Source: an uncultured Candidatus Saccharibacteria bacterium (lineage in GTDB: Bacteria; Patescibacteriota; Minisyncoccia; Phycocordibacterales; DAORIS01). From it: a stretch of DNA of 48,904 nt. A program made the position numbers and the translations under genes. Below the pieces are notes generated by a model, which was given only the letters and a program-made list of their open reading frames with translations, ran no database searches and was not told the origin of the DNA. Of this stretch, positions 1-47,132 are shown piece after piece; position 1 is the first letter of the stretch, and every line of letters begins with the position of its first letter. The stretch spans positions 1 through 48,904 of the forward strand of contig CAYTZA010000001.1 in the NCBI GenBank assembly GCA_964442365.1. Direction: 5' to 3'.

Positions 1-222
1 TGAGGTCTGCAACTCGACCTCATGAAGCCGGAATTGCTAGTAATCGCAGGTCAGCTATACTGCGGTGAATACGTTCTCAAGTCTTGTACTCACCGCCCGT
101 CAACTCAAGGGAGTTGGGAATACCCGAAATATCACGTATGTGGTCCTAAGGTAAGCTCAATGACAGGGAGTAAGTCGTAACAAGGCACGGGTAGCGGAAG
201 CTGCTCGTGGAATATTTCAAAT
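1..222 (+). rRNA. rrs: 16S rRNA, 3'-terminal ~220 nt (partial; gene continues off the left edge)
   Basis: Conserved 16S 3'-domain strings read directly: GGAATTGCTAGTAATCG, GGTGAATACGTTC, CACCGCCCGTCA, AAGTCGTAACAAGG. Helix 45 is CACGGGTAGC/GGAA/GCTGCTCGTG at 186-209. The 3' end is placed ~13 nt after helix 45 by analogy with E. coli, so it is uncertain by about 10 nt. Confidence 0.93.
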
Positions 223-324
223 GAACAACGTTTTGATTGTGCTTCGGCCTTTCAAAACTTAAAAGGCGATTATCTCTTCTGCGCAAGTAGATAGAGATAA
301 GATCATAGTGTTGTATCTTTACAT

Positions 325-350
325 GACACTCGTTTTGCTAGGTATACGTA
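325..350. repeat. Left copy of an imperfect direct repeat (GACACTCGTTTTGCTAGGTATACGTA)
   Basis: Shares an exact 11-mer GACACTCGTTT plus GGTA..CGTA with 1485-1509. About 22 of 27 aligned columns match, with two small indels. Confidence 0.5.
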
Positions 351-478
351 ACTAGATCTATATAACACAGGATGTTGTATATGAACGGTAAGCCTCTAAT
401 CTTTCGAGATTTTGGCAAGCCTTAAGAACGGAACAAAATAAAGGACAATATACACAAATCCACCCCAAAAGGGTGGAT

Positions 479-507
479 TTGACATTGTACACAGTACATG
501 ATATAGT
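479..507 (+). promoter_or_regulatory. Near-consensus sigma70-type promoter (TTGACA-17 nt-TATAGT)
   Basis: TTGACA at 479-484, a 17-nt spacer, TATAGT at 502-507. The -35 overlaps the 3' arm of a 10-bp hairpin AAATCCACCC/caaaa/GGGTGGATTT (456-480). Confidence 0.6.
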
Positions 508-569
508 CTTGGTTGGTTCTCTTTTTGTTTTTCACACCTTTTTTCCCGCTTAGCGGGAAGGAGAAGAGT

Positions 570-740
570 ATGCCTGAGCAGATTCGGCCGCATGGGGTTT
601 CCGTTGAAGAGGTGCGTGAGGGTGCCGTGTTGCGTGCAAGGCACAAGATTCGCACCGGCGCTTATGACCATCCTGACGCACTCGAGGGCGTGCTGAAAGG
701 GCTCGCGCGGGATCTCGGTGTCGAGATTGTCGGTGACTGA
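570..740 (+). CDS. Small hypothetical protein (56 aa); C-terminal half weakly resembles FlgM-type anti-sigma factors
   Basis: ATG at 570 is preceded by AAGGAG (558-563) with a 6-nt spacer. The region is G+C-rich (hand count 38/60 G+C for 601-660). The string RHKIRTGAYDHPDALEGVL resembles the conserved I..G.Y.vD segment of FlgM. The longer 513..740 ORF-track call is rejected in favour of the SD-led ATG. Confidence 0.5.
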   Translation: MPEQIRPHGVSVEEVREGAVLRARHKIRTGAYDHPDALEGVLKGLARDLGVEIVGD

Positions 741-789
741 ACGGGGCGGTAAGGGAGAGAGAAACGCAATAGGAGAAGGAAAGGGAGTT

Positions 790-825
790 GGGGTCGCTAG
801 ACAACTGTTCTGGCGGCCCCTTTTT
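790..825 (+). terminator. Intrinsic terminator (GGGGTCGC...GCGGCCCC + TTTTT)
   Basis: 8-bp G+C-rich stem with one mismatch (790-797 / 813-820), followed by TTTTT at 821-825, 50 nt after the stop at 738-740. Confidence 0.6.
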
Positions 826-877
826 AATACCTAAATTTATACACAAAATTACCCTCAAGTAGAGTCTTTTGAGGTAC

Positions 878-907
878 TTGACAGATAGGGTGTAAAGGTG
901 ATATAAT
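878..907 (+). promoter_or_regulatory. Consensus sigma70-type promoter (TTGACA-18 nt-TATAAT)
   Basis: TTGACA at 878-883 and TATAAT at 902-907. Confidence 0.6.
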
Positions 908-976
908 ATATAGTGAATGTGCATAGAGCTGGTATGTTCCAGATCTAGAGCATATGTTCTTTCGAAAGGAGATTTG

Positions 977-1486
977 ATGGCACGTTCTCTTCTTATCGTC
1001 GTATGCGTTCTTGTGGTCTGGATGACCACTGCATCACAGGCGATAGCAGAGACGCCAAGGACGGCGCTGATCGAAGCCTTGATTCACGTTGAATCAAAAG
1101 GCAATGACCGTGCTCATGGAGACAAACATCTCCCTGACCATGCGTATGGTTGTCTCCAGATCAGGCAACCCTGTGTCGACGATGTGAATAGTCGATACGG
1201 CACGAATTATCGAGCGCAAGACTGCTTCGGTAATCGTGAGCTCTCGTTGTGGATCTTCCATAGGTATATGGATATCTATGCGACAGAGTCTCGAATAGGT
1301 CGTAAGGTGACCTATCAGGACATGTCCAGGATCTGGAACGGGGGACCGTCTGGATGCTTCGACGATGGGTCTATCGACAAAAACGGTCGAAAGCCCAAAA
1401 GTGCAAAGGCTCGCCGGAAAGTTTCTGAGACTCAGAAACGGGCGAAGATTGAGTATTGGCAGAAGAAAGTAAAACCTCTTCTCTGA
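977..1486 (+). CDS. Secreted lytic transglycosylase / lysozyme-like (SLT-type) protein
   Basis: AAGGAG at 966-971, 5-nt spacer, ATG at 977. The N-terminus MARSLLIVVCVLVVWMTTASQAIA looks like a Sec signal peptide. The catalytic-type motif is LIHVESKGN...AYGCLQI (E-S ... G-L/C-x-Q). The ORF-track start at 917 is rejected. Confidence 0.7.
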   Translation: MARSLLIVVCVLVVWMTTASQAIAETPRTALIEALIHVESKGNDRAHGDKHLPDHAYGCLQIRQPCVDDVNSRYGTNYRAQDCFGNRELSLWIFHRYMDIYATESRIGRKVTYQDMSRIWNGGPSGCFDDGSIDKNGRKPKSAKARRKVSETQKRAKIEYWQKKVKPLL

Positions 1487-1509
1487 CACTCGTTTGTTCT
1501 TGGTACGTA
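1485..1509. repeat. Right copy of the imperfect direct repeat (GACACTCGTTTGTTCTTGGTACGTA)
   Basis: See 325-350. This copy overlaps the stop codon of the 977..1486 CDS and the 5' arm of the first GGAU hairpin. Confidence 0.5.
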
Positions 1510-1584
1510 GGATTACGTACTGTGCAGGTGGATACCTGCTGTCAATATTGGAGTATAAAACCGCTTGGAGGATTCCAGGCGGTT
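1503..1584 (+). other. Three tandem hairpins, each presenting GGAU in the loop
   Basis: GTACGTA-GGAT-TACGTAC (1503-1520); GCAGGT-GGAT-ACCTGC (1524-1539); AACCGCTTGG-AGGATT-CCAGGCGGTT (1559-1584, one G:U pair). None is followed directly by a U-tract. Confidence 0.6.
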
Positions 1585-1647
1585 AAGTGTATATGGATAT
1601 TATTTTTTCTTGTAATTTAGATATTTTTGAGGTAATCTTTGCATATT

Positions 1648-1865: not shown

Positions 1866-3290
1866 ATGATACCCGAAAAAAAGACAAAGATCGTTGCAAC
1901 TATTGGTCCAGCTACAGAGAAAGAACCTGTTTTTACTAAACTTGTAGAAGCGGGTTTAAATGTTATGCGACTTAACTTCTCCCATGGAGATTTTGCTGAA
2001 CATCAAGCTCGTGTCGATGTATGTCGTAAGGTATCAAAAAAGTTTGGTGTTTCTGTTGCTATTCTTCAAGATCTATCTGGTCCAAAGATTCGTATTGGTG
2101 AGTTTGGTACACCAAACGGTCGTATTACACTTATTCCTGGAAAAGCATTTACGATTACAACTGACAAGATTGTGGGTGATGAAAATCGCGTATCAGTGAA
2201 CTATCCTACTTTGCCAGAAGAGCTTAAGGTTGGAAATATGGTACTTCTCGATGACGGAAAAAAACGTCTTGAAGTTACAGCTATTAAAGGCAATGATATC
2301 GTTTGTAAAGTTATTATAGGTGGTGATACAAAAGGTCGTCGAGGAGTTAATCTTCCTGGCGCATATCTCAAGATTAGTTCTATTACTGAAAAAGATCGTA
2401 AAGACTTAGAATTTGGTATTAAAAACAAAGCTGATTTTATTGCTCTTTCTTTTGTACGACGTCCTGAAGATATTTTGGAACTTCGTGGTTTACTCACTAA
2501 AGCAAAATCAGAAGCAAAGATTATTGCTAAAATTGAGACTGAAGAAGCTATTGAAAATCTCGATGCTATTATCGATCTAACTGACGGTGTTATGGTTGCT
2601 CGTGGAGATCTTGCTATTGAAATACCTGCAGAAAAAGTACCCCTTATACAGAAACGTATTATTGCTCGTTGTAATGAACTCGGTAAACCAGTGATTACTG
2701 CTACACAGATGCTCGAGTCTATGATTAAGAGTCCTGTTCCTACACGTGCTGAAGTATCTGATATTGCTAACGCTATTATCGATGGTACTGATGCGGTCAT
2801 GCTATCAGAAGAAACTACACTTGGTGAATACCCTATAGAGGCAGTAAAAGTTATGACTAGAGTGTCTTTGGAAGTAGAAAAGACATACGATCTTCAGAGA
2901 AGTATTGAAGATATTACTCATGAAAGTCCTCGTCCTGTCGATGCTGTTTCTGGTGCTGTTGTACATGTTGCTGAAGAAATTGGTGCCACATGTATTGTCG
3001 CTCTTACACACTCTGGTACGACAGCTCGTTTGGTATCACGTTTTAAACCTTCGCAGTTGATTATCGGAGCTACACCGTTTGAAAAGACTTATAATCAGTT
3101 GGCACTTACAGGCAACACTATGCCTCTTATGGTAAAAAAGACTACGACACTTATGGCTGCATTTGCTGAAGTTAAAAAGACACTTCTTAAAAAGAAAATT
3201 GTAGAAAAGGGAGATAAAGTGGTGATTATTGCTGGTTTGCCATTTAGTAAACAGGTCAATACCAATATGTTGGTAGTAGAGACTATTTAG
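1866..3290 (+). CDS. pyk: Pyruvate kinase
   Basis: 474-aa ORF with KTKIVATIGPA, MRLNFSHG, MVARGDLAIEIP and DAVMLSEETTLG. Confidence 0.93.
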   Translation: MIPEKKTKIVATIGPATEKEPVFTKLVEAGLNVMRLNFSHGDFAEHQARVDVCRKVSKKFGVSVAILQDLSGPKIRIGEFGTPNGRITLIPGKAFTITTDKIVGDENRVSVNYPTLPEELKVGNMVLLDDGKKRLEVTAIKGNDIVCKVIIGGDTKGRRGVNLPGAYLKISSITEKDRKDLEFGIKNKADFIALSFVRRPEDILELRGLLTKAKSEAKIIAKIETEEAIENLDAIIDLTDGVMVARGDLAIEIPAEKVPLIQKRIIARCNELGKPVITATQMLESMIKSPVPTRAEVSDIANAIIDGTDAVMLSEETTLGEYPIEAVKVMTRVSLEVEKTYDLQRSIEDITHESPRPVDAVSGAVVHVAEEIGATCIVALTHSGTTARLVSRFKPSQLIIGATPFEKTYNQLALTGNTMPLMVKKTTTLMAAFAEVKKTLLKKKIVEKGDKVVIIAGLPFSKQVNTNMLVVETI

Positions 3291-10533: not shown

Positions 10534-11417
10534 ATTTGTATCCAGTTACTTGGTATAACATCTCTTGTTTTGACTCTTTTGTCGGCAATCCATTGTTTTG
10601 GAGCGATCACTATTTTTTTATTGTTTGGATTAAGCCATGCTCCCCACCAACTAAAACTTGAATTGGCAATAATATGATGATCACAAGAGCTCATGAGAAT
10701 AATTTCCTCGTAGTCAAACTTTCCATAGTCAGCAGGGTCTGGGCGAGACATGTAGTGATCTTGTACACCAAGGGGTAGTATTTGTGGTAGATGTTCTTTT
10801 GCCCATTCTATATCGTCAGAAAATATAAACACAGAATATGTACCAAGTTTTTCTGTTAGTAGAGCAAGGGCTTTTTTATAATATTCTATATCACACATAC
10901 CAAAACGTTTGCTGATACTTGGATTATTTGCATAATCACCACGTCGAACATGAAGAGAAATTGCTGGTGTAGAAGTTTTGATTGTATTGCGTAGTGATGT
11001 TGCTTGTGTTGTAAGAGGAGTTTTGAGGGTTAATTCTTTCCGTATTTCATCGGCTATTGGAGAAAAGTATTTTTCACTTTGCCAGAATCCTTCTAAATAT
11101 GAATCATTTTGTACAGAAAAATATTGAGGATTAAAAATATATGCTTGGTGTGGGAATATCTTTCTTTTTATTTTTCTTAAAAGTCTCTTTTTAAAAGTAT
11201 GCTGAGCGAGTGATTCTGTTTCGGTGATAAGTCGAGCTTTTATATTGAAATGATCTAATTTGAAATTGCGCACGGCGTCATTTGTCTGGAACTGCCAAGT
11301 GGTATACGTAGTATGATCCAATACTAGTTCAGTATTCTGTTTTGTAGCAAGAGCTCTACCAAAAGCGTATTGGAATAGTTGGTTGCCGAGCCCGCCTACA
11401 AGTTTAATCGTTATCAT
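10530..11417 (-). CDS. GT11-family alpha-1,2-fucosyltransferase
   Basis: Hallmark GT11 motifs GGLGNQLFQYAFGRALA and HVRRGDY, plus SSFSWWGAWL near the C-terminus. Confidence 0.85.
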   Translation of the reverse strand: MITIKLVGGLGNQLFQYAFGRALATKQNTELVLDHTTYTTWQFQTNDAVRNFKLDHFNIKARLITETESLAQHTFKKRLLRKIKRKIFPHQAYIFNPQYFSVQNDSYLEGFWQSEKYFSPIADEIRKELTLKTPLTTQATSLRNTIKTSTPAISLHVRRGDYANNPSISKRFGMCDIEYYKKALALLTEKLGTYSVFIFSDDIEWAKEHLPQILPLGVQDHYMSRPDPADYGKFDYEEIILMSSCDHHIIANSSFSWWGAWLNPNNKKIVIAPKQWIADKRVKTRDVIPSNWIQI

Positions 11418-32533: not shown

Positions 32534-32537
32534 ATAT

Positions 32538-32821
32538 AGACGTCGGATAACTGCTGGTTTTACTTCGGTAAGACTAGAGGAAAGTCCGAACACTCCCTTG
32601 GCTTGCCAAGGAGAAGGGTAGCGGGTAACGCCCGCCATGCGAAAGCAAGAGATGCGAACAGAGACGAGTCCATCGTAAGATGGGGTGAAACGGCAAAATT
32701 CTTACCTGAGTGCAAGGCCGTGCTTCGTGAGTAATCATGAAGAGAGCCGCTTGAGGTGCGTAGCAATACACATCCCAGATATATAGTTGTCTAAAACAGA
32801 ATTCGGCTTATAGACGTCGAC
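32538..32821 (+). ncRNA. rnpB: RNase P RNA (bacterial type, compact)
   Basis: Universal motifs GAGGAAAGTCCGAAC (P4 5' strand region), GGGTGAAACGGC, and ACAGAATTCGGCTTATAG near the 3' end. Ends are inferred from the promoter and the downstream hairpin (about +/-10 nt). Confidence 0.88.
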
Positions 32822-32866
32822 ATCCCCGTCAAACAATAAAATGTTAGACGGGGATTGTTCGTTTGG
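32822..32866 (+). terminator. Hairpin/terminator after rnpB
   Basis: 9-bp stem ATCCCCGTC/GACGGGGAT (32822-32830 / 32847-32855), followed by TGTTCGTTTGG (a weak U-tract). Confidence 0.5.
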
Positions 32867-41282: not shown

Positions 41283-41996
41283 ATGTCAAAAGAAAGAAAG
41301 AGGCGCGGGGTTTCTGTTGGTGCTGGTATGGTGCCTACAAGCACAGAAATTGGGCGTATTGTTCGAGAACGTCGAATTGAGCTCGGTCTGAGTCAGACAG
41401 AATTGAATTCCAAGATTCCGCGTTCTGGTATTAAAAATCAATTAGTTAGTAAATTAGAGGTTGGTAGTTTGAAATCTTTGAGACCAGATCAACTCAAGAT
41501 ACTGACAAAAATTCTGAATTTAGATGCTAGTTCTTTGAGTAAGTGTATAAAGATTAGAACACCACGACAAAGAACAAGGCTTGGGAAGTTGATTAGATCT
41601 CTCTGTGCTAAGCAAGGTCTGTCTACTGAACAGTTTGCATTGCAATTGGGTCTTACAACTAAACAAGTAAGAGCTATTGAGTTTCGTAATAACTTGAGTA
41701 CTTGTTACCGCAGTTTATTGCCAATTTTTGCTCGCATTCTTTCTGTTGATGAGGCAGTCTTTGCACCATTTTTGGGATTAAGAAAAAAAGAAAGTGGTCT
41801 GAGCAAATTTGGTAAATCCGTTCGCTCTCATAGAATACGTATTGGCATGAGTGCTAGAAGACTCGCAAGAGAACTTCATGTTACTCATCAAGCTGTAAGT
41901 AGTATGGAGCGCAGAGGCACTCCATATCCAAAAAGATTTACCATAGAAAAGCTTGCTGGCGTGTTGCAGACGAGCGTTGAAGAATTGACTTCTTAG
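41283..41996 (+). CDS. Protein with three tandem XRE-type helix-turn-helix modules
   Basis: AAGGAG at 41269-41274, 8-nt spacer, ATG at 41283. The repeats are IGRIVRERRIELGLSQTELNSKI, LGKLIRSLCAKQGLSTEQFALQLGLTTKQVRAIE and FGKSVRSHRIRIGMSARRLARELHVTHQAVSSME. Confidence 0.65.
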   Translation: MSKERKRRGVSVGAGMVPTSTEIGRIVRERRIELGLSQTELNSKIPRSGIKNQLVSKLEVGSLKSLRPDQLKILTKILNLDASSLSKCIKIRTPRQRTRLGKLIRSLCAKQGLSTEQFALQLGLTTKQVRAIEFRNNLSTCYRSLLPIFARILSVDEAVFAPFLGLRKKESGLSKFGKSVRSHRIRIGMSARRLARELHVTHQAVSSMERRGTPYPKRFTIEKLAGVLQTSVEELTS

Positions 41997-46616: not shown

Positions 46617-47132
46617 TTAACAGTGTGCAACAGAGTTGTGTTCGCGCTCTTGCTTACGCTTATCACGCCTTTTTTTTATAAGACTTTCTCGGTTTTGAAC
46701 CCAGTGATGATACCGAGCACTCTTCTTTTTGTTATCAGGTTCTAATCCATAGGCATTTCTACATCTACGGATAACAATTCCTGTCGTGGGATCTTTTTCT
46801 ACCCACTCTTTTACTCCGCGTCGCATCATAGCTAGAATCTCATGAGAAACTTGCTTTATGCGTTCCGGGAAAGAAAAGATTTTCGGATTGATTCTGATAA
46901 GGTAACAATCGGAAAGCTCAACATAACGGGTAGAGAATAGTTTGTTACCTGAATCAATTCCTAGCTCAACACAGACTCCGGTCCTCTCGCCAATAATTGT
47001 CGTTAAGCAAGGGACCTGTTTACTTGTACCAACTCTTTCTCTGTTGATATCGCGCATTATTTTTAGAATTACGTGACACGAGAGATCTGTTGTGCTTACT
47101 GTGGACGGAAAAGCGCGTGGCAAAGTATCCAT
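46617..47132 (-). CDS. Hypothetical 171-aa protein with a basic C-terminal tail, no recognisable family
   Basis: ATG at 47132, preceded by AAGGAG (47144-47139) and a 6-nt spacer. Composition is G+C-richer than its neighbours (26/60 for 46621-46680). It has its own terminator. Confidence 0.6.
   Translation of the reverse strand: MDTLPRAFPSTVSTTDLSCHVILKIMRDINRERVGTSKQVPCLTTIIGERTGVCVELGIDSGNKLFSTRYVELSDCYLIRINPKIFSFPERIKQVSHEILAMMRRGVKEWVEKDPTTGIVIRRCRNAYGLEPDNKKKSARYHHWVQNRESLIKKRRDKRKQEREHNSVAHC

Follow-up and report, generated by a model that had tools for sequence, protein, structure and literature searches.

A lysozyme-fold gene between the 16S rRNA gene and tRNA-Ile as part of a probably inherited rRNA-region layout in one order of Candidate Phyla Radiation bacteria

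The DNA examined here, hereafter the window, is a stretch of 48,904 nucleotides (nt) that forms the first 48.9 kb of contig C1 in a genome of an uncultured Candidatus Saccharibacteria bacterium (669 kb, 52 contigs, 99% completeness). It opens inside a 16S rRNA gene (rrs). The 1425 nt between the end of that gene and tRNA-Ile(GAU), positions 223–1647, hold two open reading frames (ORFs) on the rRNA strand: ORF1, which would encode 56 amino acids (aa), and ORF2, which encodes a 169-aa protein with a predicted lysozyme fold. We conclude, with a probability of about 0.75, that this arrangement is the normal inherited rRNA-region layout of one large order of bacteria in the Candidate Phyla Radiation (CPR), of the Parcubacteria/Paceibacteria type. 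Unlinked CPR rRNA genes, proteins encoded in their spacers, and loss of the anti-Shine-Dalgarno (anti-SD) sequence are already in print. A conserved rrs–lysozyme–tRNA-Ile unit, a bacterial branch of the i-type lysozymes, and a class of genes led by a Shine-Dalgarno (SD)-like motif are possibly new. None of the three appeared in the literature searched, at the level of titles and abstracts, which contained no description of a lysozyme gene in the rrs–tRNA-Ile spacer and no paper linking destabilase or i-type lysozyme with CPR bacteria.

A canonical 16S–23S spacer is a few hundred nt long and carries tRNA-Ile(GAU), usually with tRNA-Ala(UGC), between rrs and rrl. The locus does not conform to this pattern: tRNA-Ile lies 1425 nt from rrs, tRNA-Ala(UGC) is located on contig C4, and the gene after the tRNA is pyk. 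Searches of the 48.9-kb window with ARAGORN and Rfam returned neither tRNA-Ala nor 23S/large-subunit (LSU) rRNA. A preliminary description of this DNA, made from the sequence alone, had placed the 16S end, both ORFs, tRNA-Ile, and pyk correctly to the base, and had by implication treated the 1.4-kb expansion as peculiar to this genome. Comparison with relatives argues otherwise. Among 24 order-level loci in which a 16S 3' end was found, 17 carry tRNA-Ile(GAU) 336–2445 nt 3' of rrs on the same strand; the tRNA is on the opposite strand in one, and none was found within the fetched flank in six. LSU rRNA was not found in any of the 20 relatives' loci scanned for it. Of the 20 order genomes with an ORF2-family gene, 15 have it in this same slot, between the rrs 3' end and tRNA-Ile and on the same strand, among them a genome of the same genus (G001). 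The preliminary description had itself tied such a result to an ancient arrangement, and its implied reading of the expansion as an insertion is unsupported.

The ORF2 family is sparse within this layout. Its profile finds exactly one copy in each of 20 of 201 sampled order genomes and matches 2 of 401 genomes in a phylum sample, one being the window's own genome and the other a weak match. A scan of species representatives yielded 17 loci, a set that overlaps the 20 order genomes, and tRNA-Ile(GAU) lies 83–545 nt downstream of the lysozyme gene in all 17, on the same strand in 16; the 16S end is seen upstream wherever the contig reaches that far. In roughly 90% of order genomes the long spacer is retained but the lysozyme gene is missing, and many of these spacers hold other small ORFs, several with a hydrophobic segment. 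In G001 the order is rrs, a 72-aa ORF, the lysozyme gene, a 93-aa ORF, tRNA-Ile, and pyk, with the FlgM-like ORF following the lysozyme gene.

ORF2 (977–1486, + strand) is predicted to encode a secreted, i-type-lysozyme/destabilase-like peptidoglycan hydrolase. Its coding status is supported by codon-position bias, with 13 of the 17 listed differences from a variant contig falling at third codon positions (hand count). Against Pfam, ORF2 alone scores below cut-off for both PF05497 (16.6 bits; cut-off 26.2) and PF01464 (15.3 bits; cut-off 21.3), some of its homologues carry a precomputed PF05497 match, and PHROGs and NCBIfam gave no match for either ORF. The family profile searched against the PDB recovers leech destabilase (8bbu, 1.5e-18) and Tapes lysozyme (2dqa, 1.4e-11), with MltE at ~0.02. 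For an AlphaFold2 (AF2) model of ORF2 (pLDDT 88.6), Foldseek likewise places 8bbu and 2dqa first (probability 1.00, target TM-score 0.63–0.73), followed by MltE (E ~1.5e-3) and Slt. The N-terminus, judged by eye, is a signal-peptide-like segment, and close to its C-terminus the window copy carries ~25 additional aa as an insert rich in Lys and Arg.

The 119 homologues of ORF2, 104–195 aa in length, share a set of fixed residues. Invariant in the family are E39-S40, G48-D49, A56-Y57-G58, Q61, R63-Q64, D68-D69, N121-G122-G123-P124, and Y160-W161; the YG.LQIRQ block and the NGGP motif are among these features. The catalytic Glu of the lysozyme fold is in place, since the E-S motif of 2dqa has its Glu in the column of E39. 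In i-type lysozymes, the second catalytic carboxylate is an Asp about 12 residues after the Glu. The aligned column holds H51 in ORF2 and is variable in the family, whereas D49, two residues earlier, is invariant. The i-type lysozymes and destabilases (PF05497; PDB 8bbu, 2dqa, 3ab6, 4pj2) are the best profile and fold match, and they share with ORF2 the Glu of the E-S motif and a C-terminal NGGP...YW block; the ORF2 family differs in being bacterial, in having a putative signal peptide, in its length of 140–170 aa, and in that the column of the animal enzymes' second carboxylate is not conserved while D49 is. ORF2 had been described as a secreted lytic transglycosylase. It does not match a classical SLT enzyme, as PF01464 is sub-threshold and i-type lysozymes match best. 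Family-1 lytic transglycosylases (PF01464; MltE, Slt70) do share the lysozyme-like fold and a Glu-Ser at the end of the first helix, but their profile match is weaker than that of the i-type lysozymes by 15 orders of magnitude. Judged by its sequence, the enzyme may act either by hydrolysis or in the manner of a lytic transglycosylase.

The remaining rRNA genes were located on contig C19, and they support the unlinked arrangement that the preliminary description had proposed. This contig carries, in order, the 3' part of the 23S gene (1–2042), the 5S gene (2148–2256), a stretch of ~8.4 kb in which seven large ORFs are spread over the two strands, a leader together with a promoter-like site, and, at its very end (10714–10773), the initial 60 nt of a 16S gene. 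A sequence just 5' of that 16S start (C19:10676–10709) is complementary to window positions 422–455, with 91% agreement over 34 nt, which makes C19 and C1 the flanks of a single rrs gene with an unassembled body. On C19 the 23S–5S pair lies ~8.5 kb upstream of rrs and shares its strand. We took rRNA genes to be unlinked when 16S and 23S are more than 1.5–2 kb apart, have opposite-strand genes between them, and are not co-transcribable; here they are non-adjacent, with ORFs on both strands between them. The 23S match itself takes up ~2040 nt for 1122 model positions, which points to one or more insertions in its 3' half.

Unlinked rRNA genes have been reported for CPR/Patescibacteria (Brewer et al. 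2019/2020, bioRxiv 10.1101/705046; Lui et al. 2021, PMC8172020). Passages of the latter give 27 of 34 circularised CPR genomes with unlinked rRNA and mention protein-coding genes in spacers, and in passages of both papers the usual spacer proteins are homing endonucleases. Our locus resembles these cases in that 16S lies apart from 23S–5S and the tRNAs are scattered; it differs in that 23S–5S precede rrs by ~8.5 kb on the same strand, and those passages of the two papers do not describe a conserved rrs–lysozyme–tRNA-Ile unit. Further features were seen at the loci of some relatives. Two spacers (L040:858–1378 and L048:837–1364) hold a 144-aa LAGLIDADG-type ORF right after the 16S end and 5' of the lysozyme gene, preceded by a weak Rfam match to group-II-intron D1–D4. 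In four others, L036 (G005), L029 (G019), L058 (G015), and L041, the 16S gene is interrupted near position ~1390 of the E. coli model and elsewhere; L036 has a group I intron match, and the 16S match of L041 spans 3.3 kb.

The 16S 3' end occupies positions 1–222 (+ strand; Rfam RF00177, 178.8 bits, model positions 1299–1533) and is followed by a pre-16S 3' trailer (223–455, + strand). The trailer is assigned from its fold, its complementarity to the leader, and its conservation with G001. The structured processing trailer that had been proposed for the first ~230 nt after rrs was borne out: the fold of 223–569 has a z-score of -6.4 against shuffles, 0 of 100 of which fold as well, and among its several hairpins is the previously noted one at ~270–300, where G001 keeps a hairpin of different sequence. 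The first ~140 nt after rrs and the block 424–450 are conserved with G001. Leader and trailer are predicted to form a classical pre-16S processing stem with its 3' strand at 422–455. This assignment is based on the local 34-nt complementarity and a scan of relatives, in which all 11 with a complete 16S gene and flanks have a leader/trailer stem of 16–29 nt. The trailer strand of these 11 lies 112–197 nt after 16S, and several of the stems differ widely in sequence. A long-range leader-versus-trailer duplex fold gave -64.5 against -65.2 ± 5.9 for shuffles and is uninformative at that length. Because ORF1 and ORF2 both lie downstream of the strand 422–455, they fall outside the pre-16S structure, a correction to the earlier account of protein genes embedded in an rRNA spacer. 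Directly after the stem is a 12-bp hairpin (455–481, with no strand assigned and no T-run on the + strand) that may be a processing or partial termination signal.

Both ORFs are preceded by AAGGAG, which lies 6 nt before the ATG of ORF1 (558–563) and 5 nt before that of ORF2 (966–971). For an SD-led gene, we looked for a purine-rich motif 4–10 nt 5' of the start together with CCUCC in the 16S tail. In the window, the tail after helix 45 (186–222) lacks the CCUCC core, as do the tails of all 40 of 40 distinct sequences from relatives (including loci L006–L073), and the replacement tail is itself conserved. Of the SD attributed earlier to each ORF, the motif is present and its anti-SD partner is absent. 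Loss of the anti-SD in a Parcubacteria subgroup, where SD helices are inferred not to form, has been reported (Tsurumaki et al. 2022, PMC9297842). As far as the passages of that study go, the likeness is close, since the window and 40 relatives lack CCUCC and most genes lack an SD-like motif; the difference is that a minority of genes here, including the spacer ORFs, and most ORF2 orthologues keep AAGGAG at SD spacing. AAGGAG motifs alongside an absent anti-SD are a puzzle.

Genome-wide counts indicate that the motif marks a distinct minority of genes. AGGAG or GGAGG precedes the first ATG in 17 of 525 long ORFs versus 1.6% of random windows, whereas 4-nt SD cores are not enriched (8.0% vs 8.8%). 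For ORFs of at least 60 aa, AAGGAG is the commonest of the 20 A3G3 words found 4–9 nt before the first ATG (23 of 409 occurrences), ahead of GAAAGG (13) and AGGAGA (11), with the rest at 0–5. The genes led by AAGGAG have a mean GC content of 0.45 versus 0.375 for the genome, and 8 of 10 that were scanned have no Pfam match. About 23 or more in number, they are often clustered, and several have signal-peptide-like starts; examples are window 41283–41996 (+) and 46617–47132 (-), C5:24578–25060, C9:3130–4320, C21:952–1443, and C14:5786–6427. Of 26 genomes, about 20 have an SD-type core on the 5' side of the lysozyme gene and 9 have AGGAG there, counts that have some freedom because the start codon was taken to be the one ahead of the hydrophobic segment. 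In the same samples, 16S tails of other organisms contain CTCCTTTC, to which the extended word GAAAGGAG is complementary. A relocated anti-SD in the 16S trailer was considered and rejected, as CCTCC, CTCCTT, or TCCTTTC occurs in 4 of 41 trailers at scattered positions. We also observed T at position -1 of the first ATG in 58% of the 525 long ORFs, which may reflect overlapping stop/start codons or start context.

Each ORF is independently signalled, as the preliminary description had stated, with a sigma-70-type promoter-like site of its own, bearing an extended TG, in addition to AAGGAG. P1 (479–507, + strand; TTGACA, 17 nt, TATAGT, with TG) has 11 of 12 matches, and P2 (878–907, + strand; TTGACA, 18 nt, TATAAT, with TG) has 12 of 12 and ends 69 nt 5' of ORF2. 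A scan returned 5 promoter-like sites versus 3.3 ± 1.8 in shuffles. Across orthologous loci, a site with at least 10 of 12 matches ends 33–78 nt 5' of the lysozyme start in 13 of 16, as compared to 20 of 500 random 200-nt windows. The lysozyme 5' untranslated regions of the orthologues show similarity within subgroups only. On the 3' side of ORF1 is an intrinsic-terminator-like hairpin (790–820, + strand) of 12 pairs, 8 of them G-C, followed by TTTTT. Neither a terminator-like nor a promoter-like site was found between ORF2 and tRNA-Ile in the window. In the ViennaRNA fold of 1487–1647, three successive hairpins, each with a GGAU loop, occupy 1502–1584 (+ strand), and these may stabilise an mRNA 3' end. 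Control by CsrA, suggested by the GGAU loops and GGA-rich start regions, was rejected, the sole candidate being a 375-aa ORF with a sub-threshold PF02599 match of 19.9 bits.

These signals allow a model of expression to be proposed. With the rRNA genes unlinked, rrs would have its own promoter and leader, and tRNA-Ile(GAU) would be a relic of the ancestral spacer, retained downstream of rrs. The DNA from the processing stem to tRNA-Ile would act as a slot that takes up small autonomous genes. Read-through from rrs, initiation at P1, or both would give an ORF1 transcript that stops at the 790–820 terminator, and its product would be a cytoplasmic 56-aa protein, possibly a regulator. Transcription from P2 would cover ORF2 and probably continue into tRNA-Ile; RNase P would then cut the tRNA off the transcript, leaving the three GGAU-loop hairpins as the 3' end of the ORF2 mRNA. 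The ORF2 enzyme would cut peptidoglycan, either in the cell's own wall or in that of a host cell.

Several observations weigh against an inherited layout or against parts of this model. The lysozyme gene is present in only ~10% of order genomes, and in 4 of the 20 genomes that have it the gene lies elsewhere, with one more cut by a contig end; given this patchy presence, vertical descent requires many losses. The lysozyme tree (18 proteins, with the fragmentary rows from G149 and G059 left out) does not resolve: good support is found for 0 of its 15 inner branches, and pairs from the same family are ungrouped. GC is 0.50 in ORF2 and ~0.6 in ORF1, versus 0.375 for the genome, and both ORFs have an AAGGAG that is absent from most host genes; the deviant GC and AAGGAG fit a foreign origin equally well. 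The gene order is unlike that of the same-genus genome, and ORF1 homologues are detectable only as three or four spacer ORFs. The transcript model is drawn from sequence signals, and in 10 of 16 orthologous loci a loose scan finds a terminator-like hairpin after the lysozyme gene and ahead of tRNA-Ile, so co-transcription with tRNA-Ile would not be general.

Some of these observations could also be explained if spacer genes moved horizontally within the order by homologous recombination, with the 16S 3' end plus trailer and tRNA-Ile serving as ultra-conserved recombination arms. On this view, the slot is old and the window's gene pair entered it relatively recently. We regard this account as unlikely. 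In its favour, the lysozyme gene is patchy (20 of 201 genomes) yet fixed in position (15 of 20), its GC exceeds that of the 3-kb downstream flank in 14 of 17 loci, and the GC of the two ORFs (0.50–0.6) compares with the genome's 0.375. The window enzyme is 57–58% identical to copies from other families and 49% identical to the same-genus copy, gene order varies within the genus, and in both SD-like motif and GC the pair resembles a minority class of this genome's genes, which are accessory and mostly unannotated. However, the tree has no supported branch either way, and lysozyme GC follows host GC across loci, as expected after long residence. The identity of 49% also fits vertical descent with fast evolution, because the same-genus copy is on a long branch and pyk itself is only 58–61% identical between the two genomes; as a yardstick of divergence, pyk allowed no wider comparison, since of 5 genomes examined the same-genus one alone yielded it. 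No integrase, repeats, or other signs of mobility were seen in 223–1647.

A broader proposal, which we offer tentatively and regard as unlikely, is that the interval is a dedicated expression/exchange slot for accessory, mostly secreted or membrane proteins, with the bacterial i-type lysozyme as its flagship, and that its occupants belong to a GC-richer, consensus-promoter, GAAAGGAG-led class under selection. If selection keeps GAAAGGAG despite loss of the anti-SD, then either the motif is recognised independently of CCUCC or it is continually imported from SD-using donors.

ORF1 (570–740, + strand) is the less certain of the two spacer genes. It has no signal peptide and a GC of ~0.6, and it is assigned as a gene from its open reading frame, the spacer profile, and codon-position bias. 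ORF1 matches 0 Pfam families at E up to 1, and a search of 1.84 billion representatives returned only itself and a repeat protein. Together with the PHROG and NCBIfam searches, in which it also has no match, and the strong structure of the spacer, this could mean that 513–740 is GC-rich structured spacer RNA that is open by chance. We consider that rather doubtful. The frame has an 11/12 promoter-like site, AAGGAG 6 nt 5' of its ATG, and a terminator-like hairpin 50 nt after its stop, and small ORFs sharing its C-terminal motif recur in the rrs–tRNA-Ile spacers of other genomes. A profile of four such ORFs, searched against 5622 six-frame ORFs from all fetched loci, found three more (1.3e-6, 1.7e-5, and 1.4e-3), all in the spacer, and nothing new in a large protein database. 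Among natural variants of ORF1, 5 of 7 differences are at third codon positions and 4 are synonymous (~p = 0.045, hand calculation).

The position and strand of the 56-aa ORF were given correctly in the preliminary description, but its label "FlgM-like" derives from weak, indirect signals and is a lead rather than a classification. The likeness to FlgM anti-sigma-28 (PF04316) consists of small size and a C-terminal helical motif matched in the G001 counterpart (E 8.4e-5; 23.1 bits, under the cut-off of 25), and an Atlas cluster named FlgM was returned at rank 11 with a score of 0.86. In contrast, ORF1 itself has no match to the family, and the ORF1-type profile did not find FlgM in the PDB. 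A FlgM would be expected to have a sigma-28 (FliA) partner and flagellar genes in the genome; only two Sigma70_r2 genes, of 398 aa and 168 aa, were found. The latter, which is of extracytoplasmic function (ECF) size, is the only alternative sigma factor found; a role for ORF1 as its anti-sigma factor was set aside, as that sigma gene is followed by its own gene for a 366-aa membrane protein. Just 5' of the ORF1 start codon, a hairpin (540–569; TTCCCGC...GCGGGAA) pairs part of the AAGGAG motif, which may control ORF1 translation. In two relatives' spacers (L043:749–1285 and L045:633–1205), a GC-rich ORF of 178–190 aa 5' of the lysozyme gene combines an ORF1-like motif with a Cys-rich, zinc-finger-like tail and may represent the ORF1 family in a longer version.

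If the 16S–tRNA-Ile spacer had once been short and had recently received two foreign cassettes in a single event, this would account for the deviant GC, the consensus promoters, and the SD-like motifs. Such an insertion is very improbable in view of the long spacers in 17 of 24 relatives' loci, the shared position of the ORF2 family in 15 of 20 genomes, the same genus included, and the confinement of that family to the order in the samples searched.

The assembly itself is well supported at the junctions. Over the region compared (1–2600), contigs from a public run that is possibly the source tile 193–1599 and 1696–2600 with zero differences. A contig of an independent study matches 191–507 exactly, with 32 nt inside 16S and then spacer, and a contig of a third study, which begins in the last part of ORF2 and reaches the tRNA, matches 1414–1669 exactly. 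Contigs of independent studies thus bridge both junctions, which are not a misjoin. G001 aligns at 89% from 16S over the boundary to 359, and again over 1619–1726 and pyk. Joints that skip from 222 to 1647 and the like have sides of 20–29 nt and were rejected as locus variants; they derive from the conserved 16S and tRNA ends of other organisms. A further run, labelled RNA-Seq cDNA and flagged as probably DNA, has contigs over 778–1065 and 1386–1532 and was not used as evidence. A chimera at the contig start, in which one organism's 16S is joined to another's spacer DNA, is hardly credible: the contig does start inside 16S, metagenome assemblies often break or mis-join at rRNA genes, and read depth over 1–260 comes mostly from other organisms' 16S, but the other-study contig crosses 191–507 and the source-like run 193–572 without difference, the same-genus genome aligns past the boundary, and the trailer pairs at 422–455 with the 16S leader of its own genome on C19.

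Downstream of the spacer, tRNA-Ile(GAU) (1648–1721, + strand; ARAGORN and Rfam) is the sole copy in the assembly. It is followed by pyk (1866–3290, + strand), the first ordinary host gene, which encodes a pyruvate kinase with PK and PK_C domains (3e-122), has a GC of ~0.38, and has no SD-like motif; the pyk of G001 is syntenic. Elsewhere in the window, a class A RNase P RNA (32535–32826) covers 292 nt against a 367-position model (123.9 bits), a shortened form such as passages of Lui et al. (PMC8172020) report for CPR.

If the inherited-layout reading is correct, tRNA-Ile stayed tied to rrs in a large uncultured lineage after the break-up of the rRNA operon, and the rrs–tRNA-Ile interval is the home of a conserved secreted cell-wall hydrolase. 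This lysozyme would be a candidate tool for episymbiotic or parasitic life, placed beside the cell's strongest promoter. The i-type lysozyme/destabilase family, mostly invertebrate in the literature searched, would gain a bacterial branch with a definable catalytic core. The spacer genes would also pose a testable paradox about the start of translation in CPR bacteria, in that an SD-like motif is kept where the SD helix is inferred to be impossible. For annotation pipelines, the finding would mean that the 16S-adjacent ORFs of CPR genomes are real genes rather than spacer noise.

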